NCBI GenBank assembly: GCA_029866205.1
Contig: JARWZT010000004.1
Location: forward strand, 31,776 to 95,775
Source of the DNA: Rhodoferax sp.
GTDB taxonomy: Bacteria; Pseudomonadota; Gammaproteobacteria; Burkholderiales; Burkholderiaceae_C
Direction: 5' to 3'
Length of the DNA stretch: 64,000 nt
In this document: piece by piece, positions 935-63,643 of the stretch
Layout of the letters: every line of letters begins with the position of its first letter
Numbering within the stretch: position 1 is the stretch's first letter
Position numbers and translations under genes: made by a program
Notes under the pieces: generated by a model
What the model saw: only the letters and a program-made list of their open reading frames with translations
What the model was told of the DNA's origin: nothing
Databases searched by the model: none

Positions 935-2056
935 TCAGCTTGGGGCCAGCAGCACGATTTTTCCCACAAAATTTTTCGCGCTAAAAGTCGCTTGGGCCTG
1001 GGCGATATCGCGCAGCGCAAAAGTGCGGGCTACGACCGGCGCAATCTCGCCGCGCTCGATATAGCCCACCAGATTGTCAAAAATGCGGTCCTCCTGAAAG
1101 GTGCATCCCACCAGCGTCAGGTCTTTGAGGTAGAGGGTGCGCAAGTCAAGGGCGACCATCGGCCCGGCAATCGCACCCGAGGTGGCGTAGCGCCCGCCGC
1201 GCCTGAGCACATCCAGCAACGTGGGCCACTGGGCACCTCCTACCAGGTCGATCACCACGTCCACGCTGTCGGCGCCCACGGCCTGCGACAAATCCGCACC
1301 GCGCGCCACGCATTCGCTGGCGCCCAAAGCGCGTACCGCGGCGTGCTTGTCAGCGCCCGCCACGGCAACCACCTGGGCGCCCCGGCGGTGCGCGAGCTGC
1401 ACCGCCGCACTGCCGACGCCGCCCGAGGCACCCGTCACCAGCACCCGTTCACCGGCTTTCACGCCGGCGCGGTCCACCAGGTTTTCGGCCGTCGAATAGG
1501 CACAGGGAAAAGACGCGAGTTCGGCGTCACTCAACGGGCTGTGCACCGCCACCGCAGCGTCCGCAGGGACCCGGGTGTATTGGGCAAAGCCGCCATCGCA
1601 TTCGGAGCCAAAGTAGCCGCAGGCATACGGGCGGTAGCCGGCATAAGCTCGCAAAATGGGCCGCACCAGCACGCGCTGGCCCACCCGCGCGGCATCAACA
1701 CCCGGGCCCACCGCCGCAATGTGGCCGCAGCAGTCGGCGCCCTGGATACGCGGAAACACCATGGGCGTACCGCCCCAACTGGGGTCTTGGTCTTGTTCGT
1801 CATCAAACGCGGCTCCACCGTCTTCGGTGGCGCTGGCTGTTGTCTTGGAATACCAGCCGACGCGGGTGTTGATGTCGGTGTTGTTGACCGCACTGGCCGC
1901 CACTCGGATCAGCACCTCCCCTTCGCGCGGCAGGGGTAGCGGCAAGTCGTGTCGGTACTGCAGTACCTCGGGCCCGCCAAACGCGGTCAGCACCACCCCC
2001 TGCATGGTGGCCGGCAAGGGGGAGCTCGTAGCGATGGTGACGGGTGCAACGGTCAT
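935..2056 (-). CDS. MDR-family zinc-type alcohol dehydrogenase / quinone oxidoreductase
   Basis: 373-aa ORF with GEVLIRVAASAVNNTD, VLVTGASGGVGSAAVQLA (Rossmann GxGxxG) and C-terminal GKIVLL, typical of the medium-chain dehydrogenase/reductase family. Confidence 0.7.
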   Translation of the reverse strand: MTVAPVTIATSSPLPATMQGVVLTAFGGPEVLQYRHDLPLPLPREGEVLIRVAASAVNNTDINTRVGWYSKTTASATEDGGAAFDDEQDQDPSWGGTPMVFPRIQGADCCGHIAAVGPGVDAARVGQRVLVRPILRAYAGYRPYACGYFGSECDGGFAQYTRVPADAAVAVHSPLSDAELASFPCAYSTAENLVDRAGVKAGERVLVTGASGGVGSAAVQLAHRRGAQVVAVAGADKHAAVRALGASECVARGADLSQAVGADSVDVVIDLVGGAQWPTLLDVLRRGGRYATSGAIAGPMVALDLRTLYLKDLTLVGCTFQEDRIFDNLVGYIERGEIAPVVARTFALRDIAQAQATFSAKNFVGKIVLLAPS

Positions 2057-2065
2057 GAGGTCAGG

Positions 2066-2572
2066 CTATTTGGCCAGCGGCAGGGCCATGACCCGCCCCA
2101 CCTGCGCTGGGCGCGGCAGCGGCGCATGCAAGGCGGCCAGCGGCTGCAGGTAAGCCGCCACCTGGGGCGCAAACACGGTGGCACGCGGACCGGCCATGTC
2201 CACGTTCAGCAGCATCTGCTCGGTCAGCGCCAGCAACTGCGTGCCGCCCACCGGGTACAGGCCCAAGGCGACGTGCAGGCGCTTGGCGTCCAGACCCAGA
2301 ATCTGGAGTCGCACCTCGACGGATGCGCCCTGCTTGACCTCGTGCAGGTAATTGATGTGCGCCTCCAGGGTGAACCACGAATGCCCTGTGGCCTTGCGCC
2401 CGGCCTCGTCCAAGCCCGCCAAATCCATCAGCGCGTCTACTGCGCTGCTGAACAGCACCATGTAATAGCCGTCGCGCAGGTGGCCATTGAAGTCAACCCA
2501 CTCGGCACCGATGGTGCAGCGGTAAACCACGGGCAAGGCCGTGGCCTTGGCCAGCTCAGGCATCGGGCGCAA
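2066..2572 (-). CDS. hotdog-fold thioesterase, paralogue 2 (betainyl-CoA thioesterase-like by context)
   Basis: 168-aa ORF with [17 protein letters not shown]...[13 protein letters not shown]. Its start overlaps the end of the upstream dehydrogenase gene, suggesting an operon. The start could instead be Met4 at 2563. Confidence 0.6.
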
Positions 2573-3562: not shown

Positions 3563-4450
3563 TCAGCCGCGCTTTTTGAGGCCCATTTTTTCGCGGCCTT
3601 GGGCCGGGGTCATGGGCGTGCTGCCCAAGCGGGTGATGATTTCCACCACGCGTTCGGTGAGCGAACCATTGGTGGCCAGCACCCCTTTGTCGAGCCACAG
3701 GTTGTCTTCCAGGCCCACACGCACATTGCCACCGAGCAACATGGCCTGCGCGGCCATCGGCATTTGCGTGCGGCCAATGCCAAAGCCCGACCACACTACG
3801 CCCGGCGGCAGGTTGTCGACCATGGCTTTCATGGTGGTGGTGTCGGCCGGTGCGCCCCAGGGAATGCCCAGGCAGAGTTGGAACAGCGGGTTGTCGAGCA
3901 AGCCCTCTTTCATCATCTGCTTGGCAAACCACAGGTGGCCGGTGTCAAAAATCTCCAGTTCGGCTTTCACACCCAGCTCGGTAATACGCTTGGCCCCGGC
4001 GCGCAGCGCCACCGGGGTGGACACGTAAATCGTGTCGCCGTCGCCAAAGTTCAGCGTGCCGCAGTCCAAGGTGCAGATCTCGGGCAGCAGTTGCTCCACA
4101 TGAATGAGCCGCGCCATCGGGCCAATCAGGTCGGTATTGGGACCAAAGCGGGTCGGCGTCTCACCCGGGCCAATTTCCAGGTCGCCGCCCATGCCGGCGG
4201 TCAGGTTGACGATGATGTCCACGCCAGAGTCGCGGATGCGGTCCATCACCTCGGCATACAAAGCCGGGTCGCGGCTGAACTGGCCGGTCTCGGGGTTGCG
4301 CACGTGGCAGTGCACCACCGTGGCACCGGCCTTGGCCGCTTCCACGGCGGCCGCAGCGATTTGCGTGGGGGTGACGGGCACATGCGGGCTCTTGCCAGCG
4401 GTGTCTCCAGCGCCGGTCAGGGCGCAGGTAATGATGACGTTGGGGTTCAT
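3563..4450 (-). CDS. beta-keto acid cleavage enzyme (BKACE / DUF849, 3-keto-5-aminohexanoate cleavage enzyme family); dehydrocarnitine cleavage by context
   Basis: 295 aa, [17 protein letters not shown]...[25 protein letters not shown], the hallmark BKACE N-terminus. ATGA overlap with the upstream aldolase-like gene. Confidence 0.8.
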
Positions 4451-5190
4451 GTTTTGTACTCCGGTTCTTCGTGGTCAAGGATGTCTTTGAGCGCCGCAAA
4501 GTGCAGCGCGCTAAAGGCGGTGGGGTAATCGTTCCACTGGGCGCAGGCCAGCGTGGCCAGCGGCTCAGCAATCAGCGCCAGCGGCCGCCCGGTGGACAGG
4601 GCCAGCACTTGCAACTTGGCGGCTTTTTCCAGGTAATACAGTTCGTCCAGGGCCTGCGCCACAGTGGGGCCGACCACAATCACGCCATGGTTGCCCATGA
4701 ACAGCACGCTTTTGTCAGCCCCCAGCAGGCCGGCGACGCGCTGGCCCTCCGAGGCCTCCAGCGCCATCCCGGCGTAATCGCGGTCGTAGGCGATGCGGCC
4801 GTGGAACCGGCAGGCGTTTTGGTCGAGGGCCAGCCATTCAAAGTCTTGCAGGCAGCACAGGGTGGTGGCGTAGGGCATGTGCGTGTGCAAAATGCAGCGC
4901 GCTTGGGGCAAACGTTGGTGCAGCTCAGCGTGCAGATACCAAGCGGTGGGGTCTGCAGCCGGGTTGACGGGTGCGCCTGCCGACTGCCGGGCGTCCAAGC
5001 GCAGCAAGTCGCTGGCCCGGAGCCGCGAGAAATGGCTGCCCGCCGGGTTCAGCAGAAACTCTGTGCCGTCGTCGCTCAGAGCCAGACTGAAATGGTTGGC
5101 AATGGACTCGTGCAGGTCCCAGCGCGCGGCCCAGCGGAAGGCAGCCGCCAGATCCATGCGGGCTATCGTCTCGTCGAGTCGTGCGGTCAT
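4447..5190 (-). CDS. class II aldolase/adducin-domain protein
   Basis: The ATG at 5190 gives 247 aa with [10 protein letters not shown]...[25 protein letters not shown], typical of the class II aldolase/adducin family. Translationally coupled to the BKACE gene. Confidence 0.7.
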
Positions 5191-5487
5191 GTGTCCAGTC
5201 GTGGAAGGTGTGCCATTCTGATGGCGCACTGTAGCCCGCAAGTGCGCGGATTTATGGCACAAGACCGACGTTTTTTCGGCTTTTTACGACAATATTCCTG
5301 AACCACTGCGCACCACGTCGCAGCTTGCAGGCAACCGCCGACCGCGCTTGATGGCGCCACGCGGGTCTTCGCATGCGCTGATCGTCTTATGCTCTTACCA
5401 AGGTCGCTTTTGGGCCACAGGCCGACGCTGCGTTGTGTCACTATCCGTGCCTTCACTCAAATACCCCGTTTTTTGGCGCGCCGCACT

Positions 5488-42241: not shown

Positions 42242-42329
42242 AGTTCACTCCAAAATTAAAAATAAATGTGGAAAACCACCACGCTTTGGGGCCAAAAACT
42301 CAAGGGGATGAGGCTCAGCCCACAGACAC

Positions 42330-42425
42330 GTGGGTGAGCGCAGTTGGTGCGGTAACGGGTGTTGATACCCCGCCACGCGGTCCGAGCCTCGTTCAAACGG
42401 TATGAACTGCAACGCTCCTCGGAAG
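42330..42425 (-). promoter_or_regulatory. SAH riboswitch (S-adenosylhomocysteine-responsive leader of ahcY)
   Basis: The minus strand reads CCGAGGAGCGUUGCA-(GUUCA...UGAAC hairpin)-GAGGCUCGG-(variable hairpin)-AACUGCGCUCAC. The conserved GAGGAGCG / AGGCUCGG / GCGCUCAC blocks and the pseudoknot logic of the SAH element are present, about 90 nt upstream of ahcY. Confidence 0.7.
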
Positions 42426-42480
42426 CCTGAAGTATACGAAATTGTGCAGCGATGCCGCACCGGGGCGAATTTTTGGGGGA

Positions 42481-52118: not shown

Positions 52119-52195
52119 AGGGGAATCGCCAAGTTGGTTAAGGCACTGGATTTTGATTCCAGCATGCGAAGGTTCGAATCCTTCTTCCCCTGCCA
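52119..52195 (+). tRNA. tRNA-Gln (anticodon UUG)
   Basis: Hand-folded cloverleaf: acceptor AGGGGAA/UUCCCCU, D arm GCCA/GGCA, anticodon stem CUGGA/UCCAG with loop UUUUGAU, T arm GAAGG-UUCGAAU-CCUUC, discriminator G, encoded CCA; 77 nt. Confidence 0.95.
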
Positions 52196-56866: not shown

Positions 56867-57562
56867 CTAAACCACCGCGTGCGCGGGATAGCCGGGGCCC
56901 AGGAACAGCGGGGGCGCAATACCCTCCGCGGCAAAAGCCCGGCGCACCGCCTCGCGCTGCTCGAGGCGCTCCATCAGCCCCGCCACCCGGGGCAAGGCGC
57001 TGACGGCCTGCGCACCCAAGGCATTGCCACGCGGATAAAGCTGCGACCAACGCACACAGGCGCCCAAATACAAGTCGCACACACTGAGCGCATCCCCCAA
57101 CAGCCACGGGCCACCATGGCGAGCCAGCTCGGCCTCCAGCAAGCCCAGGTGCCCCAGCACTCTGGCGTGCAAGCGCGTTTGCAGCGCCGCAATGGCCGCA
57201 GGGCCAGACGCATAACGCTCGGTGTAAAACAACATGCGCAGATCGGCGTGCAAGGTGTTGGACAGGTAAAACAACCACTTCAGAAACCGGCCGCGCGCAG
57301 CGGCACCCAAGGGTTTCAACACCCCGTGCTGGTCCGCCAAGTGCAACACAATGGCGGCCGTCTCAAACAGCGGTTCGTCTTGCGCCGGGTCCACAAGCAC
57401 GGGCAACAGGCCCTGCGGGTTGAACTTCAAAAAAGCCGGACTGCTTTGGGCCTGCTGGCGCCGGTCCACTTCGAGCGCCTCGTAGGAGGCACCGATTTCT
57501 TCGAGCGCCATGCGCACCACCACATTGGCGCTGTCGGGCGAATAAAACAGCGTGTAAGTCAT
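56867..57562 (-). CDS. glutathione S-transferase family protein
   Basis: 231 aa with an N-terminal thioredoxin-like GST fold (LFYSPDSANVVVRMALEE...PQGLLPVL) and a helical C-domain. Confidence 0.75.
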   Translation of the reverse strand: MTYTLFYSPDSANVVVRMALEEIGASYEALEVDRRQQAQSSPAFLKFNPQGLLPVLVDPAQDEPLFETAAIVLHLADQHGVLKPLGAAARGRFLKWLFYLSNTLHADLRMLFYTERYASGPAAIAALQTRLHARVLGHLGLLEAELARHGGPWLLGDALSVCDLYLGACVRWSQLYPRGNALGAQAVSALPRVAGLMERLEQREAVRRAFAAEGIAPPLFLGPGYPAHAVV

Positions 57563-57572
57563 GGCCAGGCGC

Positions 57573-58757
57573 TCAGGGCTTGCGCATCACCACCAAGCCC
57601 TTGAGGTACTCGCCCTCAGGAAAACTGATGGTCATGGGGTGGTCTGGCGCACCGCCCATGCGCTCGGTGATAAAGCCGTCCACTCCGGCGTCGGCCCCGG
57701 CAGAGGCCACAATTTTGTGAAACAGGTCGGCGCTGATACCACCCGAGCAAGAGTAGGTAAACAGCACGCCGCCGGGCTCCAAAATCTTGAACGCCAAGCG
57801 GTTGATGTCTTTGTAGGCCCGCGCAGCCCGCTCCGCATGCGCCACGGTGGGCGCATATTTGGGCGGGTCAAGCACGATGGCGTCAAAGGTCTTGCCCGCC
57901 TGCGCAAACTGGCGCAGCGACGCATTGACATCGGCGTCCATAAAGTGCGCGCGCTCGGGGGCAAAGCCGTTGAGCGCCACGTTGGCCGCAGCCTGGGCAA
58001 TGGCCGGGCCCGAGGAGTCAATCGACGTGACGTGCGCCGCGCCGCCGGAGAGCGCAGCCACGGTAAAGCCGCCGGTGTAGCAAAAGCAGTTCAGCACGCG
58101 CTGAAACTGCAGGCGCTTGGCATGGTCGGCAAACCGCTTGCGGCTGTCGCGTTGGTCCAAATAAAAGCCGGTCTTGTGGCCGTGGGCAATGTCCAGCGCC
58201 AGCTGCCAGCCGTGTTCGCGCAGCACCAGGTCGGTCGCGCCGCTGCCACGCAGCCAGCCTGTCGCCTCGGGCAGGCCCTCCAGGGCGCGGCTGCTGGCAT
58301 CGGAGCGCTCGTAGAGCTGGCTCAGGCCGGTGTGGGCCAGCAGTGCGTCGGCAATGACGGCCTTCCAGCGTTCGACCCCGGCCGACGTGAACTGCGCCAC
58401 CAGCGTGTCGCCGTAGCGGTCAACGATCAGCCCCGGCAGCCCGTCAGACTCGCCATGCACCAGGCGCATGCCGTCGCTCTGAATGTCAAAGCGGCTGCGC
58501 GCCTGCAGGGCCAAGGCAATGGTGCGGCTGAAAAAGGCCGCGTCAATGCGCTGCGCCTCGTCAAAACTCCAGACCCGTGCCCGGATTTTGGAACTGGGGC
58601 TAAACGCCGCCCAGCCCAAAAACTGGCCGTCATGGCCCTCGACCCGCACCGTCTCGCCGCTGTCGCCGCCCCCGCGCTCGATGGCAGACTCAAAGATCCA
58701 GGGATGGCGGCGCAGCAAAGAGCGCTCTTTGCCGGCGCGAAGGCGTAAGGTTTTCAT
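57573..58757 (-). CDS. rlmI: class I SAM-dependent rRNA (cytosine-C5) methyltransferase, RlmI-like
   Basis: The ATG at 58757 gives MKTLRLRAGKERSLLRRHPWIFESAIE (PUA-like N-terminus), VLNCFCYTGGF (SAM motif) and IVLDPPKY. Confidence 0.8.
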   Translation of the reverse strand: MKTLRLRAGKERSLLRRHPWIFESAIERGGGDSGETVRVEGHDGQFLGWAAFSPSSKIRARVWSFDEAQRIDAAFFSRTIALALQARSRFDIQSDGMRLVHGESDGLPGLIVDRYGDTLVAQFTSAGVERWKAVIADALLAHTGLSQLYERSDASSRALEGLPEATGWLRGSGATDLVLREHGWQLALDIAHGHKTGFYLDQRDSRKRFADHAKRLQFQRVLNCFCYTGGFTVAALSGGAAHVTSIDSSGPAIAQAAANVALNGFAPERAHFMDADVNASLRQFAQAGKTFDAIVLDPPKYAPTVAHAERAARAYKDINRLAFKILEPGGVLFTYSCSGGISADLFHKIVASAGADAGVDGFITERMGGAPDHPMTISFPEGEYLKGLVVMRKP

Positions 58758-58877
58758 GCCGGTATTGTCGCTTGGGGTGTTGCCAGGGTTTGGCGCAAGG
58801 CACGCCCAGGCCCCCTCGGACACGCAAGGCACCCCGCCCGCCTCTTGCAACGATTTTCATTTTGCTAAGATTGCGTT

Positions 58878-59040
58878 GCCGGTTTCCACCCCAACCGGCG
58901 GACAAGAAAATTGAAGGGCAAACCCGGCCAAAGCCGGCGACGCAAAGCCACCGGACTAAAGCGCTGCACGCAGCGCAAGGTCAGCGGGGCCGCCAGATTC
59001 GACAGACAAGATCCCCTTGTCTGCTCTTTCCTGTTGTTGC
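58878..59040 (+). ncRNA. candidate structured small RNA upstream of the RT (hypothetical)
   Basis: A possible promoter (TTGCAA 58845-58850, 15-nt spacer, TAAGAT 58866-58871) is followed by four hairpins: GCCGGTT/AACCGGC at 58878-58899, CCGGC/GCCGG at 58924-58937, GCGCTGC/GCAGCGC at 58961-76, and CAGACAAG/CTTGTCTG at 59003-59023. A T-rich run follows (CTCTTTCCTGTTGTTG). No experimental or comparative support. Confidence 0.25.
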
Positions 59041-59294
59041 ACACCGCAATGAGGCAGTCGATATGCGTCAGATGTTTGTAGACGGCTGCGCTGGGCGGGC
59101 CTGCGATTGGCATCGCTTAGCCAGCACTGTAAGCACTATTTCTTTGCGACCAATCGGTAGCGAACGAGGTCGGCGTCTTGGTAAGGCCGCGATGGGCGGG
59201 GAGTCGGAATTGCGCTCGGCATGTGTCGTATTTGATGCGCAAGTAGGTTCCATACCCTGCGCCAAGTTGTCGTTAAATTCGTAACCGACTATCG

Positions 59295-60809
59295 ATGTCT
59301 ACCCCTGAGCTTGTCCATCGAAATCTAACCGCTGAGCTCGCTCGTTCATTGGACAGAGCAGAAGTCTATGCTTGGCTTGTGACCAGCGGCTTTTTTCCAG
59401 AAGCCTACGTGCTCCCACCGTGCTTCACGGTTACGAAGCACCCACCATATGGGAAGGTCTACTTCCCGCATACACCGACGGAGTTCAAGCCGCGGCTTAC
59501 AGAGTATCAACAGGTACATTTTCCTAAGACCGACTACACAGACCGTACGTTCGGAGTTATTGATCCTGAGCTCCACTCTGATCTTGCATACGAGTTCTCC
59601 AGCAACTGGGACATAGTTCTTGATCAAATTTTTGATCCAAAGAACAAAGTGTGTTCCTACAGTTTTCCAGTGCCGCTGGACTCGAAGAATCCAGGATCAG
59701 TAGGGCAACTTCGTAGCGGTAGGATGATCTACGAATTCATCGAAATGGCCGAAAATGACATCGCGGCAATCGCTCACCGGTTCAAGTTTTTGATCAAGTC
59801 TGACGTCAAAAATTTCTATCCTTCTATCTACACCCACAGCATCTCGTGGGCGCTTCACGGCAAGGCATACATTCGCAAGGCTGGAAACCGGCAAAACTAC
59901 TCAATATTTGGCAATCGTGTGGACAAACTTTTCCAGTACTCAAACGATGGGTGTACGAACGGCCTGCCGATTGGACCAGCAATCTCCGACATTGCCGCTG
60001 AGATTGTCATGTCCGCCGTCGACCGGCAACTCTCAGACTCGCTCCCTGAAGGTGCAGTTGTTATGCGGTTTAAGGACGACTATCGCATTCTCGTGCGCAC
60101 CGAAGCCGACGGTAGATCGATTGTTAAGGACCTTCAGGCTGCCCTGAAAGACTATCGACTCGAATTAAATGACGAAAAAACTCAATTCCACAGCCTACCT
60201 AATGGAATATTTAGAGACTGGGTCTCCCAGTATCATGCGGTCAATCGTGTCCCGAAGGCCTACTATCCATTCAGGCGATTCAAAGAAACCTACTTGGCCG
60301 TTGTAGCTATCGACCGAGCCAACAGTGGGTGTGGTGTTATCGACAGATTCCTCGCCGACATCATCACCAAAAAATATCGGCTTCGAGTGAAACTTGACAA
60401 TCGAACGTTGCCAAAGGTGTTGAGTTTGTTGCTAATGCTTGGATCACTGCGCACTAAAGCATATCCAAAAGTGCTAGCGACAATTGAGGCGATTCTCCAA
60501 TCGACTTTTGGAAAGCAACACTCGGTAGAGATTGCCAAGCACTTGGCAGATCACCTATCGCAACTCTCTGAACGCGAAGCGGAGAACCGATACCTGATTG
60601 CTTGGATCTGTTACTTCCTTCGGGCCAATAACCTTGATAGCCACATCACCGCAAAGTACAAGTACAAGGATCCAATTGTCAACGCGACCTACACAAGCAG
60701 CTTTGCCCTGTTTAAACATTGCAAGGACTTCAAAGTCTTCTTAGGCGTTAAAAAAGCCGCCAAGAGGACGTCATTGTTGAAACATCTTGATGTTTTCAAG
60801 CCGCAATGA
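59295..60809 (+). CDS. reverse transcriptase of the Abi/UG (defence-associated, DRT-like) class
   Basis: 504 aa. Finger motif HFPKTDYTDRTFGVIDP; motif A LIKSDVKNFYPSIYTHSISW (D170); motif B NGLPIGPAISDIAAEIV; motif C MRFKDDYRILV (D261 D262); motif D/E LELNDEKTQF; then ~190 aa of helical-looking sequence. No maturase X/En domain and no retron-type motifs recognised. Confidence 0.85.
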   Translation: MSTPELVHRNLTAELARSLDRAEVYAWLVTSGFFPEAYVLPPCFTVTKHPPYGKVYFPHTPTEFKPRLTEYQQVHFPKTDYTDRTFGVIDPELHSDLAYEFSSNWDIVLDQIFDPKNKVCSYSFPVPLDSKNPGSVGQLRSGRMIYEFIEMAENDIAAIAHRFKFLIKSDVKNFYPSIYTHSISWALHGKAYIRKAGNRQNYSIFGNRVDKLFQYSNDGCTNGLPIGPAISDIAAEIVMSAVDRQLSDSLPEGAVVMRFKDDYRILVRTEADGRSIVKDLQAALKDYRLELNDEKTQFHSLPNGIFRDWVSQYHAVNRVPKAYYPFRRFKETYLAVVAIDRANSGCGVIDRFLADIITKKYRLRVKLDNRTLPKVLSLLLMLGSLRTKAYPKVLATIEAILQSTFGKQHSVEIAKHLADHLSQLSEREAENRYLIAWICYFLRANNLDSHITAKYKYKDPIVNATYTSSFALFKHCKDFKVFLGVKKAAKRTSLLKHLDVFKPQ

Positions 60810-60919
60810 AATGACCAAGCGACTCACCTAACCTAACGCGTGAAGGCAAACCAGATAGCTAAGAGCTCAGACATCTCCATCAAACGCCTGCGGCGTGTCG
60901 GCAACAAAAAAGACATCCT

Positions 60920-61330
60920 ATGACATCCTTTTCAAGTCGGACGAAAGACACCTCCTGGAACCTGAAGACCCCGCCAGGCCCTTCAGAGTGCGCGATGCAC
61001 GTCGATGAAAAAAACGGGATTACGATTCTTGTCTGCACGGTGGGCAGCACTGTGCTGCACTACGACGCGCGGTGCATTGATGACCTGCAAGCGATGCTCA
61101 AGCAGGCTGGCGATTGGGTTGAATTGGGGGGTGCGGACGAACAGAAGCCCGCGAAAGAAGGCACGGTGGAAGCCTGGGGTCGGTCGCCAAGCAACCCGGT
61201 GGGGGGCTGGTACGGGCTCAAAAAGGGGCTACGCGGACGGTTTGGCGTCTACGTGCCGCCGCTGATGGAAGAACTCGGGCTGTATGAACTGGAGCACAAC
61301 GCCAAGAACAATCGCATGCGGGCCAAGTAG
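60920..61330 (+). CDS. conserved-looking hypothetical protein (unknown function)
   Basis: 136-aa ORF on the same strand as the RT, 110 nt downstream. The C-terminal block GGWYGLKKGLRGRFGVYVPPLMEELGLYELEHNAKNNRMRA looks like a family I recall seeing in accessory regions, but I cannot name it. No obvious RBS. Confidence 0.45.
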   Translation: MTSFSSRTKDTSWNLKTPPGPSECAMHVDEKNGITILVCTVGSTVLHYDARCIDDLQAMLKQAGDWVELGGADEQKPAKEGTVEAWGRSPSNPVGGWYGLKKGLRGRFGVYVPPLMEELGLYELEHNAKNNRMRAK

Positions 61331-61392
61331 CGCAGCTAAGCCCCAGTGAGACGATCCGGGTGGGCAAGACAATTTCGCGGCCAGATCGGGTT

Positions 61393-62124
61393 TTAACCAT
61401 TCAACACCGTCCTCAGCACCATATCCACAATCAGCGCCTCGGCCGCCGCAAAGTCGGATTCTTCGAGCGCGGGTTTGCCCAGCACCAGGCTGATTTGGCT
61501 GGCCCAGTCGGCGTAGACCTGGGTGGACGCCCAGAGCAAGACCATCAGATGGCGGCCGTCCACGGCGCGGCACAGGCCGCGTTCGGCCCAGCGGTTTAAG
61601 ACCGCCACATCGGCTTGCACCGCGGGGATCACCCGCGCAGCAATTTCGGCCGAAAAAATGGGGGCGCCCGACACCACTTCGTTGGCGTAGACGCGCGAGT
61701 CGTCAGGGTGCTCGCGCGAAAAGCGCAGTTTGCCGGCAATGTATTCGCGCAGCGCTTGCTCGGGGTCGTCGGGGTGCTGGCCCAAGGCGTCCATGTACGA
61801 CAACCACACGTCGAGCACGCCGTGCAGTACGCGGCGGTAAAGCTCTTCTTTGCTGGGAAAGTAATACAGCAGGTTTTGCTTGGACGCGCCCACCTCGCGG
61901 GCAATGTGGTCCAAGGACACTCCACCAAAGCCGCGCTGCGCAAACAGGCGCTTGGCGGCCGCCAGGATGTCTGCCTCGAGCAGCTTGCGGGCCTGGCTGA
62001 GTTTGACGACCTTGGTCTTGTCCCCCTTTGGCACTGCCGTTTTGGGCGCAGTCACCGCCGGTTTGGCCGCCCGGGCTTTGGCGGTATGGGGCGGGGCAAT
62101 GAGAGGTAGCGCCGGATTTTTCAT
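61393..62124 (-). CDS. TetR-family regulator, RutR-like (pyrimidine catabolism)
   Basis: The ATG at 62124 gives the HTH ILAAAKRLFAQRGFGGVSLDHIAREVGASKQNLLYYFPSKEELY. Divergent from preT/preA. Confidence 0.8.
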   Translation of the reverse strand: MKNPALPLIAPPHTAKARAAKPAVTAPKTAVPKGDKTKVVKLSQARKLLEADILAAAKRLFAQRGFGGVSLDHIAREVGASKQNLLYYFPSKEELYRRVLHGVLDVWLSYMDALGQHPDDPEQALREYIAGKLRFSREHPDDSRVYANEVVSGAPIFSAEIAARVIPAVQADVAVLNRWAERGLCRAVDGRHLMVLLWASTQVYADWASQISLVLGKPALEESDFAAAEALIVDMVLRTVLNG

Positions 62125-62296
62125 TTTTCTGGTACGCGTATTGCTAGTAAAAAGTCTAGGGTTTTTACCAATTGGTAAAACAATTATTACTGGATTAAAT
62201 AAACCTTGCAAATCATCCTGGCGACTGGGGCAACGCCTTTGGGCCGCCGGGTTGGTAAGCCATTTTGATGCCACTCATGCGATTGGAAACCACACC

Positions 62297-63643
62297 ATGC
62301 AAGCAGACGCTCTGACGCCCGGAGTCCACGCCGGTCGGCTGCCCGCGGCGCAATACGCCCAGAACTTTTGCGACGCGCACCCGCCGCTCAATCTGGCGCA
62401 GGCCAAGATTGAGGCGGACCGCTGTTATTACTGCTTTGACGCGCCCTGCCAGACGGCCTGTCCCACGGGAATCGACGTGCCCAGCTTTATTCGCCGCATT
62501 GCCGACGACAACCCGCGCGGCGCGGCGCGCACGATTTTGGAGTCCAACCCGCTGGGAGGCATGTGCGCCCGGGTCTGCCCCACCGAAGTGCTGTGCGAGC
62601 AGGCCTGCGTGCGCAACACCCACGAAGACAAACCGGTCGAAATCGGCCTTTTGCAGCGCTACGCCACAGACCATCTGATGGCGCACCCCGGCGCGCCCTT
62701 GTTTACCCGCGCAGCTGCCACGGGGCGCCGGGTGGCGGTGGTGGGCGCCGGGCCCGCAGGTTTGGCCTGCGCCCACGGTTTGGCACGCCAGGGCCACAGC
62801 GTGGTGCTGATGGACGCCCAGCCCAAGCTCGGTGGCCTGAACGAATACGGACTGGCCACCTACAAAACCACCGACGGCTTTGCGCAAAAAGAAGTGGCGT
62901 GGCTGCTGTCGATTGGCGGTATTGAGGTGCGCCACGGTGTCGCGCTGGGGCGCGAACTGCACCTCGACGCCCTGACCCAAGAGTTTTACGCCGTGTTTTT
63001 AGGCTTAGGCCTGGCCGGGGTCAACAGCATCGGCATTGCGGAACCCCAGGCCAGTGGCTTGCGCAACGCGGTGGACTTTATTGCCGAGTTGCGCCAGGCC
63101 AGCAACCCGGCCAGCGTGCCGGTCGGTCGGCGTGTGGTGGTGATTGGCGGGGGCATGACGGCCGTGGACGCGGCAGTGCAGTCCAAAAAGCTGGGCGCAC
63201 AGTCGGTGACCATCGTGTACCGCCGTGGTGCGCAAGACATGGGCGCCTCGCACCACGAGCAGGCATGGGCGCTCGAGAACGGGGTACACATTCACCATTG
63301 GGCCAGTCCAACCCGGCTGCTCGCGGACGGTGGCCAGATCAGCGGTGTGGAATTTGGTGCCATGCACATGGCGGACGGCAAGTTGCAGGCCACCGGCGAG
63401 CACTTTGTGCTGGAGGCCGACCTGGTGCTCAAGGCCATTGGCCAAAGTCTGGTGGCGCAGCCCCTGGGCAGCGCACTCGAACTCAAGGGCGGGCGCATCG
63501 TGACCGATGCCGAAGGCCAGACCTCACACCCCAAAGTCTGGGCCGGTGGCGACTGCCGATTTGGCGGGCGCGACCTGACGGTCGAAGCCGTGGAGCACGG
63601 CAAAGTGGCCGCCCATTCCATTCACTCCGCAATCAGTGCCTAG
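62297..63643 (+). CDS. preT: NAD-dependent dihydropyrimidine dehydrogenase subunit PreT
   Basis: The ATG at 62297 gives Cys clusters CYYCFDAPCQTACP and CARVCPTEVLCEQAC, then VAVVGAGPAGLACA (FAD/NAD Rossmann), like the glutamate synthase small subunit. The upstream ORF extension overlaps the TetR gene and was discarded. Confidence 0.85.
   Translation: MQADALTPGVHAGRLPAAQYAQNFCDAHPPLNLAQAKIEADRCYYCFDAPCQTACPTGIDVPSFIRRIADDNPRGAARTILESNPLGGMCARVCPTEVLCEQACVRNTHEDKPVEIGLLQRYATDHLMAHPGAPLFTRAAATGRRVAVVGAGPAGLACAHGLARQGHSVVLMDAQPKLGGLNEYGLATYKTTDGFAQKEVAWLLSIGGIEVRHGVALGRELHLDALTQEFYAVFLGLGLAGVNSIGIAEPQASGLRNAVDFIAELRQASNPASVPVGRRVVVIGGGMTAVDAAVQSKKLGAQSVTIVYRRGAQDMGASHHEQAWALENGVHIHHWASPTRLLADGGQISGVEFGAMHMADGKLQATGEHFVLEADLVLKAIGQSLVAQPLGSALELKGGRIVTDAEGQTSHPKVWAGGDCRFGGRDLTVEAVEHGKVAAHSIHSAISA

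Follow-up and report, generated by a model that had tools for sequence, protein, structure and literature searches.

An intact UG14 reverse transcriptase gene in a strain-variable slot downstream of a c-di-GMP-I riboswitch in a Rhodoferax-like bacterium

What does a reverse transcriptase (RT) gene do that stands in a bacterial genome without a recognisable effector beside it and with a base composition unlike that of its surroundings? We asked this of an RT gene at positions 59295-60809 of a 64,000-nucleotide stretch from Rhodoferax sp. (GCA_029866205.1, contig JARWZT010000004.1, positions 31,776 to 95,775 of the forward strand; hereafter the window), where a first-pass annotation, made from the letters alone, had described an open reading frame (ORF) of 504 amino acids with a complete RT palm and had placed it among the Abi and unknown-group (UG) antiphage RTs. 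The ORF is present as described, and the reading that we favour, with somewhat more confidence than doubt, is that it constitutes an intact, horizontally acquired single-gene system of group UG14, acting in the manner of DRT4 and DRT6.

Assignment to UG14

Comparison with the profile models of UG, Abi and DRT enzymes, a check that the first-pass annotation had suggested, placed the protein on the PADLOC model RT_UG14 (PDLC03751) over its full length, with an E-value of 2.3e-195, a score of 648 bits and residues 8-504 aligned to positions 7-493 of the 493-position profile. The next models, Drt6 (219 bits), Drt4 (200 bits) and AbiP2 (169 bits), trail it by ~430 bits, and these top matches bear out the Abi/UG (DRT) clade to which the gene had been assigned by eye. 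The RTs of three other family loci score 690-706 bits on the same model. With near certainty, then, the RT is a typical, ordinary member of a named group, UG14, within the Class 1 UG/Abi RTs. It adds no new RT type and nothing sets the protein itself apart within UG14, such that of the earlier proposal, a divergent member of a known single-gene type or an uncharacterised one, membership of a named group stands and the divergence does not.

The ORF is real and intact, its intactness following from a length that equals the family mode (504 residues) and from the invariance of all catalytic residues. In an alignment of 30 family sequences of 55-84% identity (hereafter the family alignment), the named motif residues are invariant, comprising D170, Y175, S177 and Y179-I183 in motif A and its FYPSIYTHS extension, G223, G227, P228 and S231 in motif B, K260-D261-D262-Y263 in motif C, and L291, K295 and T296 in the LNDEKT motif. 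The RT active site is complete, with the motif A aspartate (D170) and the motif C aspartate pair (D261 and D262) kept in all 30 sequences, as the proposed inspection of the catalytic residues in a proper alignment required. Pfam recognises RVT_1 only, over the RT core (residues 138-300, E 1e-13). The public gene call for the locus (GCA_029981475.1) is 486 residues long and starts at codon 19, i.e. 18 codons late (59295-59348); we favour the 504-residue start because H8, T12 and L19 are invariant in the family. The identical arrangement was found again in a second, independent sample (L091).

Public homologues of the RT fall into 1,095 clusters at E <= 1e-20, the best 120 of which are 55-84% identical to it and for the most part 504 residues long. 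At least 570 UG14 loci were confirmed in a species-representative genome collection, in taxa that include Cyanobacteria, Nitrospirota, Bacteroidota, Planctomycetota and Proteobacteria. Viral contigs are nearly without the group, with 1 confirmed locus in IMG/VR, and given this count and a slot without phage genes, a phage or prophage origin was rejected. Enrichment in defence islands led Mestre et al. (2022, PMC9226505) to count UG14 with the groups that they call "predicted as novel defense genes". As for other groups in the literature, DRT10 is UG17 and DRT11 appears to be UG5.

Predicted fold and proposed mechanism

An AlphaFold2 model built from the family alignment (mean pLDDT 81, pTM 0.64) comprises the RT core followed by 13 helices within residues 308-498, in agreement with the earlier description of the ~190 C-terminal residues as helical, and this part of the protein is predicted to form an alpha-Rep domain in place of the thumb, a hallmark of Class 1. 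Structure prediction had been suggested as a check for just such an alpha-repeat C-terminus, and Foldseek led from the model to alpha-Rep enzymes, the top matches in the PDB being, in order, DRT4 (9vdo), UG15 (9l9s), DRT6 (9wy8), Abi-P2 (7r08), AbiK (7r06) and AbiA (8oz7). The alignments to DRT4, DRT6, Abi-P2 and AbiK run over ~500 columns and cover the alpha-Rep domains of these proteins, whereas group II intron, retron, DRT2, DRT9 and diversity-generating retroelement (DGR) RTs trail the Abi/DRT Class 1 enzymes by 7-10 orders of magnitude in E-value. A profile search of the PDB gave much the same ranking, with DRT4/UG15 (E ~1e-37), MBP-tagged 9wy8, the hexameric DRT6 (6e-32), Abi-P2 (1.5e-30) and AbiK (4e-17).

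The top solved relative by both profile and fold is thus DRT4 (UG15; PDB 9vdo, 21ou and 9l9s), which has the same order of domains, fingers and palm and then alpha-Rep, and the same single-gene make-up. In the profile-to-PDB alignment, Tyr125 of DRT4 (IMNYED) falls on Tyr146 of the window protein (GRMIYEF), which is invariant in the family alignment and which we infer, by analogy, to be the priming residue. The two differ in that they are only ~20% identical and in their motif C, which reads YIDD in DRT4 and FKDDY here. DRT6 (UG12), Abi-P2 and AbiK are of like architecture (Foldseek E 1e-13 to 1e-12, near full length) and are single abortive-infection proteins, though assigned to named groups other than UG14; all of them, like DRT4, are DNA polymerases that are primed by protein and need no template. 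The priming tyrosine of AbiK is N-terminal (PDB 7z0z is the Y44F variant) and does not occupy the DRT4-type position. Abi-P2 is described as prophage-borne, in contrast to UG14 with its near absence from viral contigs.

DRT4 is a single-gene system that forms a dimer of trimers (hexamer), primes on Tyr125 and synthesises random single-stranded DNA without a template, which remains covalently attached, and the same phage protein activates DRT6 as well as DRT4 (PMC12783706). Class 1 enzymes in general make untemplated DNA, according to PMC13174585 and its later version. Mainly because Tyr125 of DRT4 aligns with the invariant Tyr146, we propose a DRT4-like mechanism for the window RT, in which the enzyme would most likely copy no RNA. 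Its C-terminal alpha-Rep domain would assemble it into a trimer or hexamer, synthesis would be primed on its own Tyr146, and single-stranded DNA would be polymerised without a template. In the uninfected cell the product would be kept short by host exonucleases, while upon infection a phage DNA-binding protein or a like trigger would stabilise it, and the resulting build-up of DNA would kill or arrest the cell (abortive infection). Judged from the relatives, protein-primed, untemplated DNA synthesis by this RT has a shade better than an even chance, and an antiphage function is quite probable. Having the priming tyrosine of DRT4 but a motif C and an alpha-Rep domain of its own, UG14 is a reasonable target for asking what DNA Class 1 enzymes write.

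A strain-variable slot and its riboswitch

The RT gene has a guanine-plus-cytosine (GC) content of 48.2%, compared with 61.9% over the whole window and 63-66% in its neighbours rlmI and tetR, and is AT-rich relative to its surroundings, as had been noted. A search by way of the flanking rlmI led to two strains that are sisters to the present Rhodoferax-like bacterium (L173 and L180), both of which keep rlmI, a c-di-GMP-I riboswitch aptamer with its terminator-like hairpin and, on the far side, tetR-preT-preA, and both of which lack the RT. High identity to the sister strains breaks off at 59081-59096 and sets in again at 61362-61402, with flanks 97-99% identical. Its low GC content (48% vs 62%), together with its absence from sister strains whose flanks are so nearly identical, indicates that the RT is of foreign origin.

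What the slot holds differs from strain to strain. In L173, whose RlmI is 99% identical, it carries a 129-residue ORF and then, directly after it, a 289-residue TIR_2 protein with weak ThsB-like PADLOC matches (together 4189-5461, minus strand), an operon by which the riboswitch may be followed here by another kind of defence cargo. A truncated brnA-like ORF of 76 residues, with the MVKTRSGREI.. start of brnA, is present as well. In L180 it carries an intact brnT/brnA pair (1558-2104, plus strand) and a decayed fragment of a DUF6855 gene (residues 49-102; 2246-2348, minus strand). Riboswitch and platform thus belong to the host backbone, whereas the RT is a cargo for which other strains have alternatives. 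In farther relatives (RlmI <= 93% identity) the region is rearranged: xerC or other genes lie upstream of rlmI, and the riboswitch is missing.

Apart from the RT, the inserted segment of the window contains a single gene, which encodes a DUF6855 protein without a PADLOC match, consistent with the earlier remark that no neighbour is a recognisable effector. Since L180 keeps the decayed fragment, DUF6855 must already have occupied the slot in the common ancestor of L180 and the window strain. We considered whether the riboswitch natively served DUF6855, the RT having been inserted between them, and did not find this supported: 20 DUF6855 loci, among them the closest one with 83% identity, all lack the aptamer, and L173 has the riboswitch without DUF6855. 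In the search for DUF6855 proteins all 8,000 candidates scored pass E <= 1e-10, with identities of 78-85% for the best 120, making it a highly conserved protein without an assigned role. A search for target-site duplications or att-like repeats at the borders of the cargo gave only short two-copy matches. A 16-nt direct repeat (13/16) lies at 59037-59052, in the backbone past the terminator tail, and at 60794-60809, in the last codons and stop of the RT, and is probably due to chance because the C-terminal sequence of the RT is conserved across the family.

The aptamer matches Rfam RF01051 over the whole model (1-87 of 87) with 68.3 bits, against a gathering score of 35, and is the only Rfam match near the RT (57500-62500 at E <= 1). 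In it are present, judging by sequence, what we take to be the equivalents of the ligand-contacting G20, A47 and C92 in Vc2 numbering (AGGGCAAAC, GCAAAG and AGCGGGG). Its counterparts in the sister strains are 95.6-96.7% identical (96.7% in L180) and score 64.7 bits in L173. The terminator-like hairpin starts 6 nt past the aptamer and is retained by both sister strains, where a single A-to-G substitution still leaves a G-U pair. Folds of the aptamer region gave no ON or OFF direction of the switch. A simple scan found no sigma-70-like promoter on the plus strand within 58600-61500, including one for the riboswitch itself, and no terminator-like site on the plus strand between the riboswitch hairpin and the end of DUF6855. 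With neither a promoter-like nor a plus-strand terminator-like site found between them, read-through from the riboswitch-controlled promoter into RT-DUF6855 is plausible.

Riboswitch control of the RT, as suggested by this arrangement, nonetheless has in our estimate somewhat less than an even chance. The missing promoter match in the leader is weak evidence because the scan also missed the promoter of the riboswitch, the case for control is circumstantial, and a leader of 298 nt is unusually long; moreover, an Rfam scan of 38 other UG14 loci, the closest relatives included, found no c-di-GMP aptamer. These loci rule out the riboswitch as a feature of the UG14 family. The link is local to the Rhodoferax-like lineage, and it is by its position in a strain-variable slot behind a c-di-GMP-I riboswitch that the window copy differs from these other UG14 loci.

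Between the riboswitch platform and the RT start lies a leader that diverges strongly among strains. Across the three strains it is 56-64% identical, with near-zero indels and its length kept, whereas the neighbouring DNA is 93-99% identical and even the third codon positions of rlmI are 91-94% identical in the same comparisons. An ORF at 59063-59284 (MRQMF..., ATG at 59063) is open in all three strains and ends 8-10 nt before the start codon of the next gene. It was rejected as a conserved protein, since substitutions are spread evenly over its codon positions and it has no homologue among 1.84 billion representative proteins; there may instead be a need for translation that does not depend on the sequence. 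A structured RNA in the leader was not supported either, the RNAalifold covariation term being unfavourable (+4.9) with many broken pairs and the single-sequence fold having a z-score of -0.7. The simplest reading of the sequences is that leader and cargo would have been exchanged together by recombination among more distant lineages with the same riboswitch-leader arrangement.

One may go further and regard riboswitch, terminator and length-conserved leader as a fixed "socket", gated by c-di-GMP, for interchangeable toxic or defensive cargo (the UG14 RT, the TIR operon and others), a view that we consider doubtful at present. If it were true, abortive-infection genes of this Rhodoferax-like lineage would be gated by the c-di-GMP state of the cell (sessile or biofilm vs motile), the locus would provide the first defence RT controlled by a ligand riboswitch and an example of a second-messenger-gated defence hotspot, and, if the riboswitch does gate the cargo, second-messenger physiology would be connected to the control of abortive-infection genes. 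The nearest parallel is the RCd22/abiF-motif RNA that precedes AbiF in C. difficile, likewise a structured 5' leader with a premature terminator before an abortive-infection gene, where most transcription ends ahead of the toxic ORF (bioRxiv 10.1101/2025.04.15.648962). That RNA, however, is dedicated, ligand-free and conserved with its gene family, while the element in the window is a c-di-GMP-I aptamer of the host locus, with cargo behind it that varies by strain.

The single-gene reading and its rivals

To assess whether the RT has a partner, we took 51 full-length UG14 loci, called the ORFs up to 3 kb from the RT and grouped these by BLAST. No neighbour family is conserved over these loci, the largest occurring in <= 4 of them, which upholds the earlier description of the gene as stand-alone. 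DUF6855 was rejected as a partner: it is absent near the closest RT relatives, does not recur around the 51 loci, and its own loci contain an RT in none of 80 cases. Comparison of 117 neighbours with PADLOC and Pfam turned up scattered defence-type genes (Type III restriction enzymes, Uma2, PIN and STAND-like ATPases), with UvrD-type helicases as the one recurring theme. In the closest RT relative with usable context (L089, 83% identity), the RT lies directly downstream of a clear defence island (L089 1-4541, plus strand) that encodes an N6/N4 methylase, a Type III restriction enzyme, the PDC-S14 candidate defence protein and a DUF4160 protein. Similarity to the relatives whose DNA is 79% and 72% identical extends from 59311-59315 precisely to the stop codon, and because the nearest relatives have nothing outside the ORF in common, no dedicated non-coding RNA appears to travel with the RT. 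The RT is most likely stand-alone, without an obligate partner. A match to the Flavo-1 small RNA (53 bits) was seen ~250 nt upstream of a Flavobacterium UG14 RT, on the opposite strand (L031 3610-3753, minus strand).

Several points count against a DRT4-like single-gene system. The mechanism is carried over by analogy from relatives at only ~20% identity, and on the NCBIfam Drt4 model (NF041749) the RT scores 174.7 bits against an equivalog cut-off of 450, making it related to DRT4 but not a member. Foldseek TM-scores are ~0.47, which probably reflects differences in domain orientation. Class 1 enzymes are, in addition, not uniform, as Drt3b yields a protein-templated alternating repeat and DRT7 a poly(A)/poly(T)-rich DNA (PMC13174585, among other sources), so that the type of product made by UG14 is not predictable. 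In the literature we did not find an experimental characterisation of UG14, a name that for RTs turned up solely in the paper of 2022. Finally, a local hidden Markov model search detected a UvrD-type helicase on the same strand beside the RT at 7 of the 51 loci, only 15-46 nt away from it in 5 cases.

This last observation could mean that the window RT is half of a system, UG14 normally needing a helicase of the UvrD type, which may or may not include an exonuclease domain, and the present copy being either inactive or served in trans by a helicase of the host. Two cyanobacterial loci do carry, upstream of the RT, a UvrD protein of 820-833 residues with an inserted DEDDh exonuclease that exceeds 1,000 bits on the PADLOC model RTasHel, and the RT of one of them (L001) is, at 62% identity, nearer to that of the window than any other in the set of 80 loci retained from the genome collection. 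Yet 44 of the 51 loci, including those of all closest relatives (72-84% identity), have no such helicase, nor does the 2.3-kb cargo of the window. Four other loci have a helicase of ~700 residues with an unknown N-terminal domain and no PADLOC match at 1e-30, and a set of helicases with two or more unrelated architectures, some placed before and others after the RT, fits a facultative accessory better than an obligate partner. DRT4 and DRT6, furthermore, act as single genes. We therefore consider the two-part system improbable, although the tight linkage of a UvrD-type helicase, sometimes with an exonuclease insert, in about 1 in 7 UG14 loci may mark a two-gene variant; the text of the 2022 paper ties a UvrD helicase to UG35, not UG14 (PMC9226505). 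Less probable again is that the RT came along as a neutral passenger or is a decaying leftover of horizontal transfer, functionless in its present host: its GC content is strongly foreign, only some strains have it, the slot bears scars of earlier cargo (the brnA remnant here, the decayed DUF6855 in L180) and there is no obvious Shine-Dalgarno-like sequence upstream of the RT ATG, but the ORF is full-length with every invariant family residue intact, and the arrangement recurs unchanged in the independent sample L091.

A similarly slim chance, and if anything a slightly smaller one, attaches to an RNA-templated enzyme resembling the Class 2 systems DRT2, DRT9 and DRT10, with the 298-nt leader, or else some other transcript, as its non-coding RNA partner. 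UG2 and UG28 loci have a sizeable non-coding stretch 5' of the RT (PMC9226505), and so does the window (59097-59294), where the length of the stretch is kept in three strains at ~40% divergence. This leader, however, belongs to the host slot, its homologues preceding the TIR operon and the DUF6855 remnant in strains that have no RT; the flanks have nothing in common with those of the nearest RT relatives, the unfavourable covariation term and the fold z-score given above lend no support, and the protein combines an alpha-Rep architecture of Class 1 with a priming tyrosine of the DRT4 type. Nothing but the RT palm, generic to all these families, speaks for a retron, group II intron or DGR RT, an identity that we regard as refuted, with a negligible residual probability. 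The NCBIfam models for retron St85 (33.6 bits, cut-off 235) and for the group II intron RT/maturase (TIGR04416; 41.8 bits, cut-off 300, over the palm only) remain far under their cut-offs, as does the Drt3b model, and Rfam finds no msr/msd or intron RNA, whether in the window at the gathering threshold or in 57500-62500 at E <= 1. The protein has no maturase X or endonuclease domain, and such RTs also lag far behind Class 1 in the Foldseek comparison above, in line with the earlier exclusion of retrons and group II introns. The single-gene UG14 system thus remains the reading that we prefer. The features on which it rests are collected in Table 1.

Table 1. Coordinates of the RT gene, its slot and related features (window positions unless a locus is named).
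Feature	Coordinates	Strand	Basis and remarks
UG14 (Class 1 UG/Abi) RT gene	59295-60809 (including stop codon)	+	504 residues, ATG start, 48.2% GC; PADLOC RT_UG14
RT fingers/palm core, residues 138-300	59706-60194	+	Pfam RVT_1, family alignment
Catalytic Asp codons	D170, 59802-59804; D261/D262, 60075-60080	+	Invariant in family alignment
Tyr146 codon (GRMIYEF), candidate protein-priming residue	59730-59732	+	Profile alignment to PDB 21ou/9vdo; invariant in family alignment
C-terminal all-helical domain, residues ~308-504, predicted alpha-Rep replacing thumb	60216-60806	+	AlphaFold2 secondary structure, Foldseek
c-di-GMP-I riboswitch aptamer, host backbone	58907-58997	+	Rfam RF01051; 298 nt upstream of RT start
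Terminator-like hairpin and T-rich tail, putative expression platform	59003-59040 (stem 59003-59023)	+	Terminator scan; minimum-free-energy and centroid folds
Leader, riboswitch platform to RT start	59097-59294	+	Homologous in L173 5740-5470 (-) and L180 2564-2350 (-)
Strain-variable cargo segment holding RT and DUF6855	59093-61361 (2,269 bp vs L173); 59082-61401 vs L180		blastn breakpoints
DUF6855 gene, co-passenger in the slot	60920-61330	+	136 residues; Pfam PF21619, E 8e-66
Remnant (~40 nt) of brnA antitoxin 5' end, scar of earlier cargo	61361-61401	-	85% identical to start of intact L180 brnA
UvrD-type helicases near UG14 RTs of other loci	L001 1497-3956; L027 1454-3952; L016 3436-5538; L019 5539-7626; L045 1907-3967; L015 3237-5315; L036 2141-3979	Same as RT	Local hidden Markov model

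Elsewhere in the window, an S-adenosylhomocysteine (SAH) riboswitch aptamer was detected at 42329-42426 on the minus strand (48 bits against a gathering score of 37), and the sole tRNA of the window, a tRNA-Gln with anticodon TTG, lies at 52119-52195 on the plus strand.

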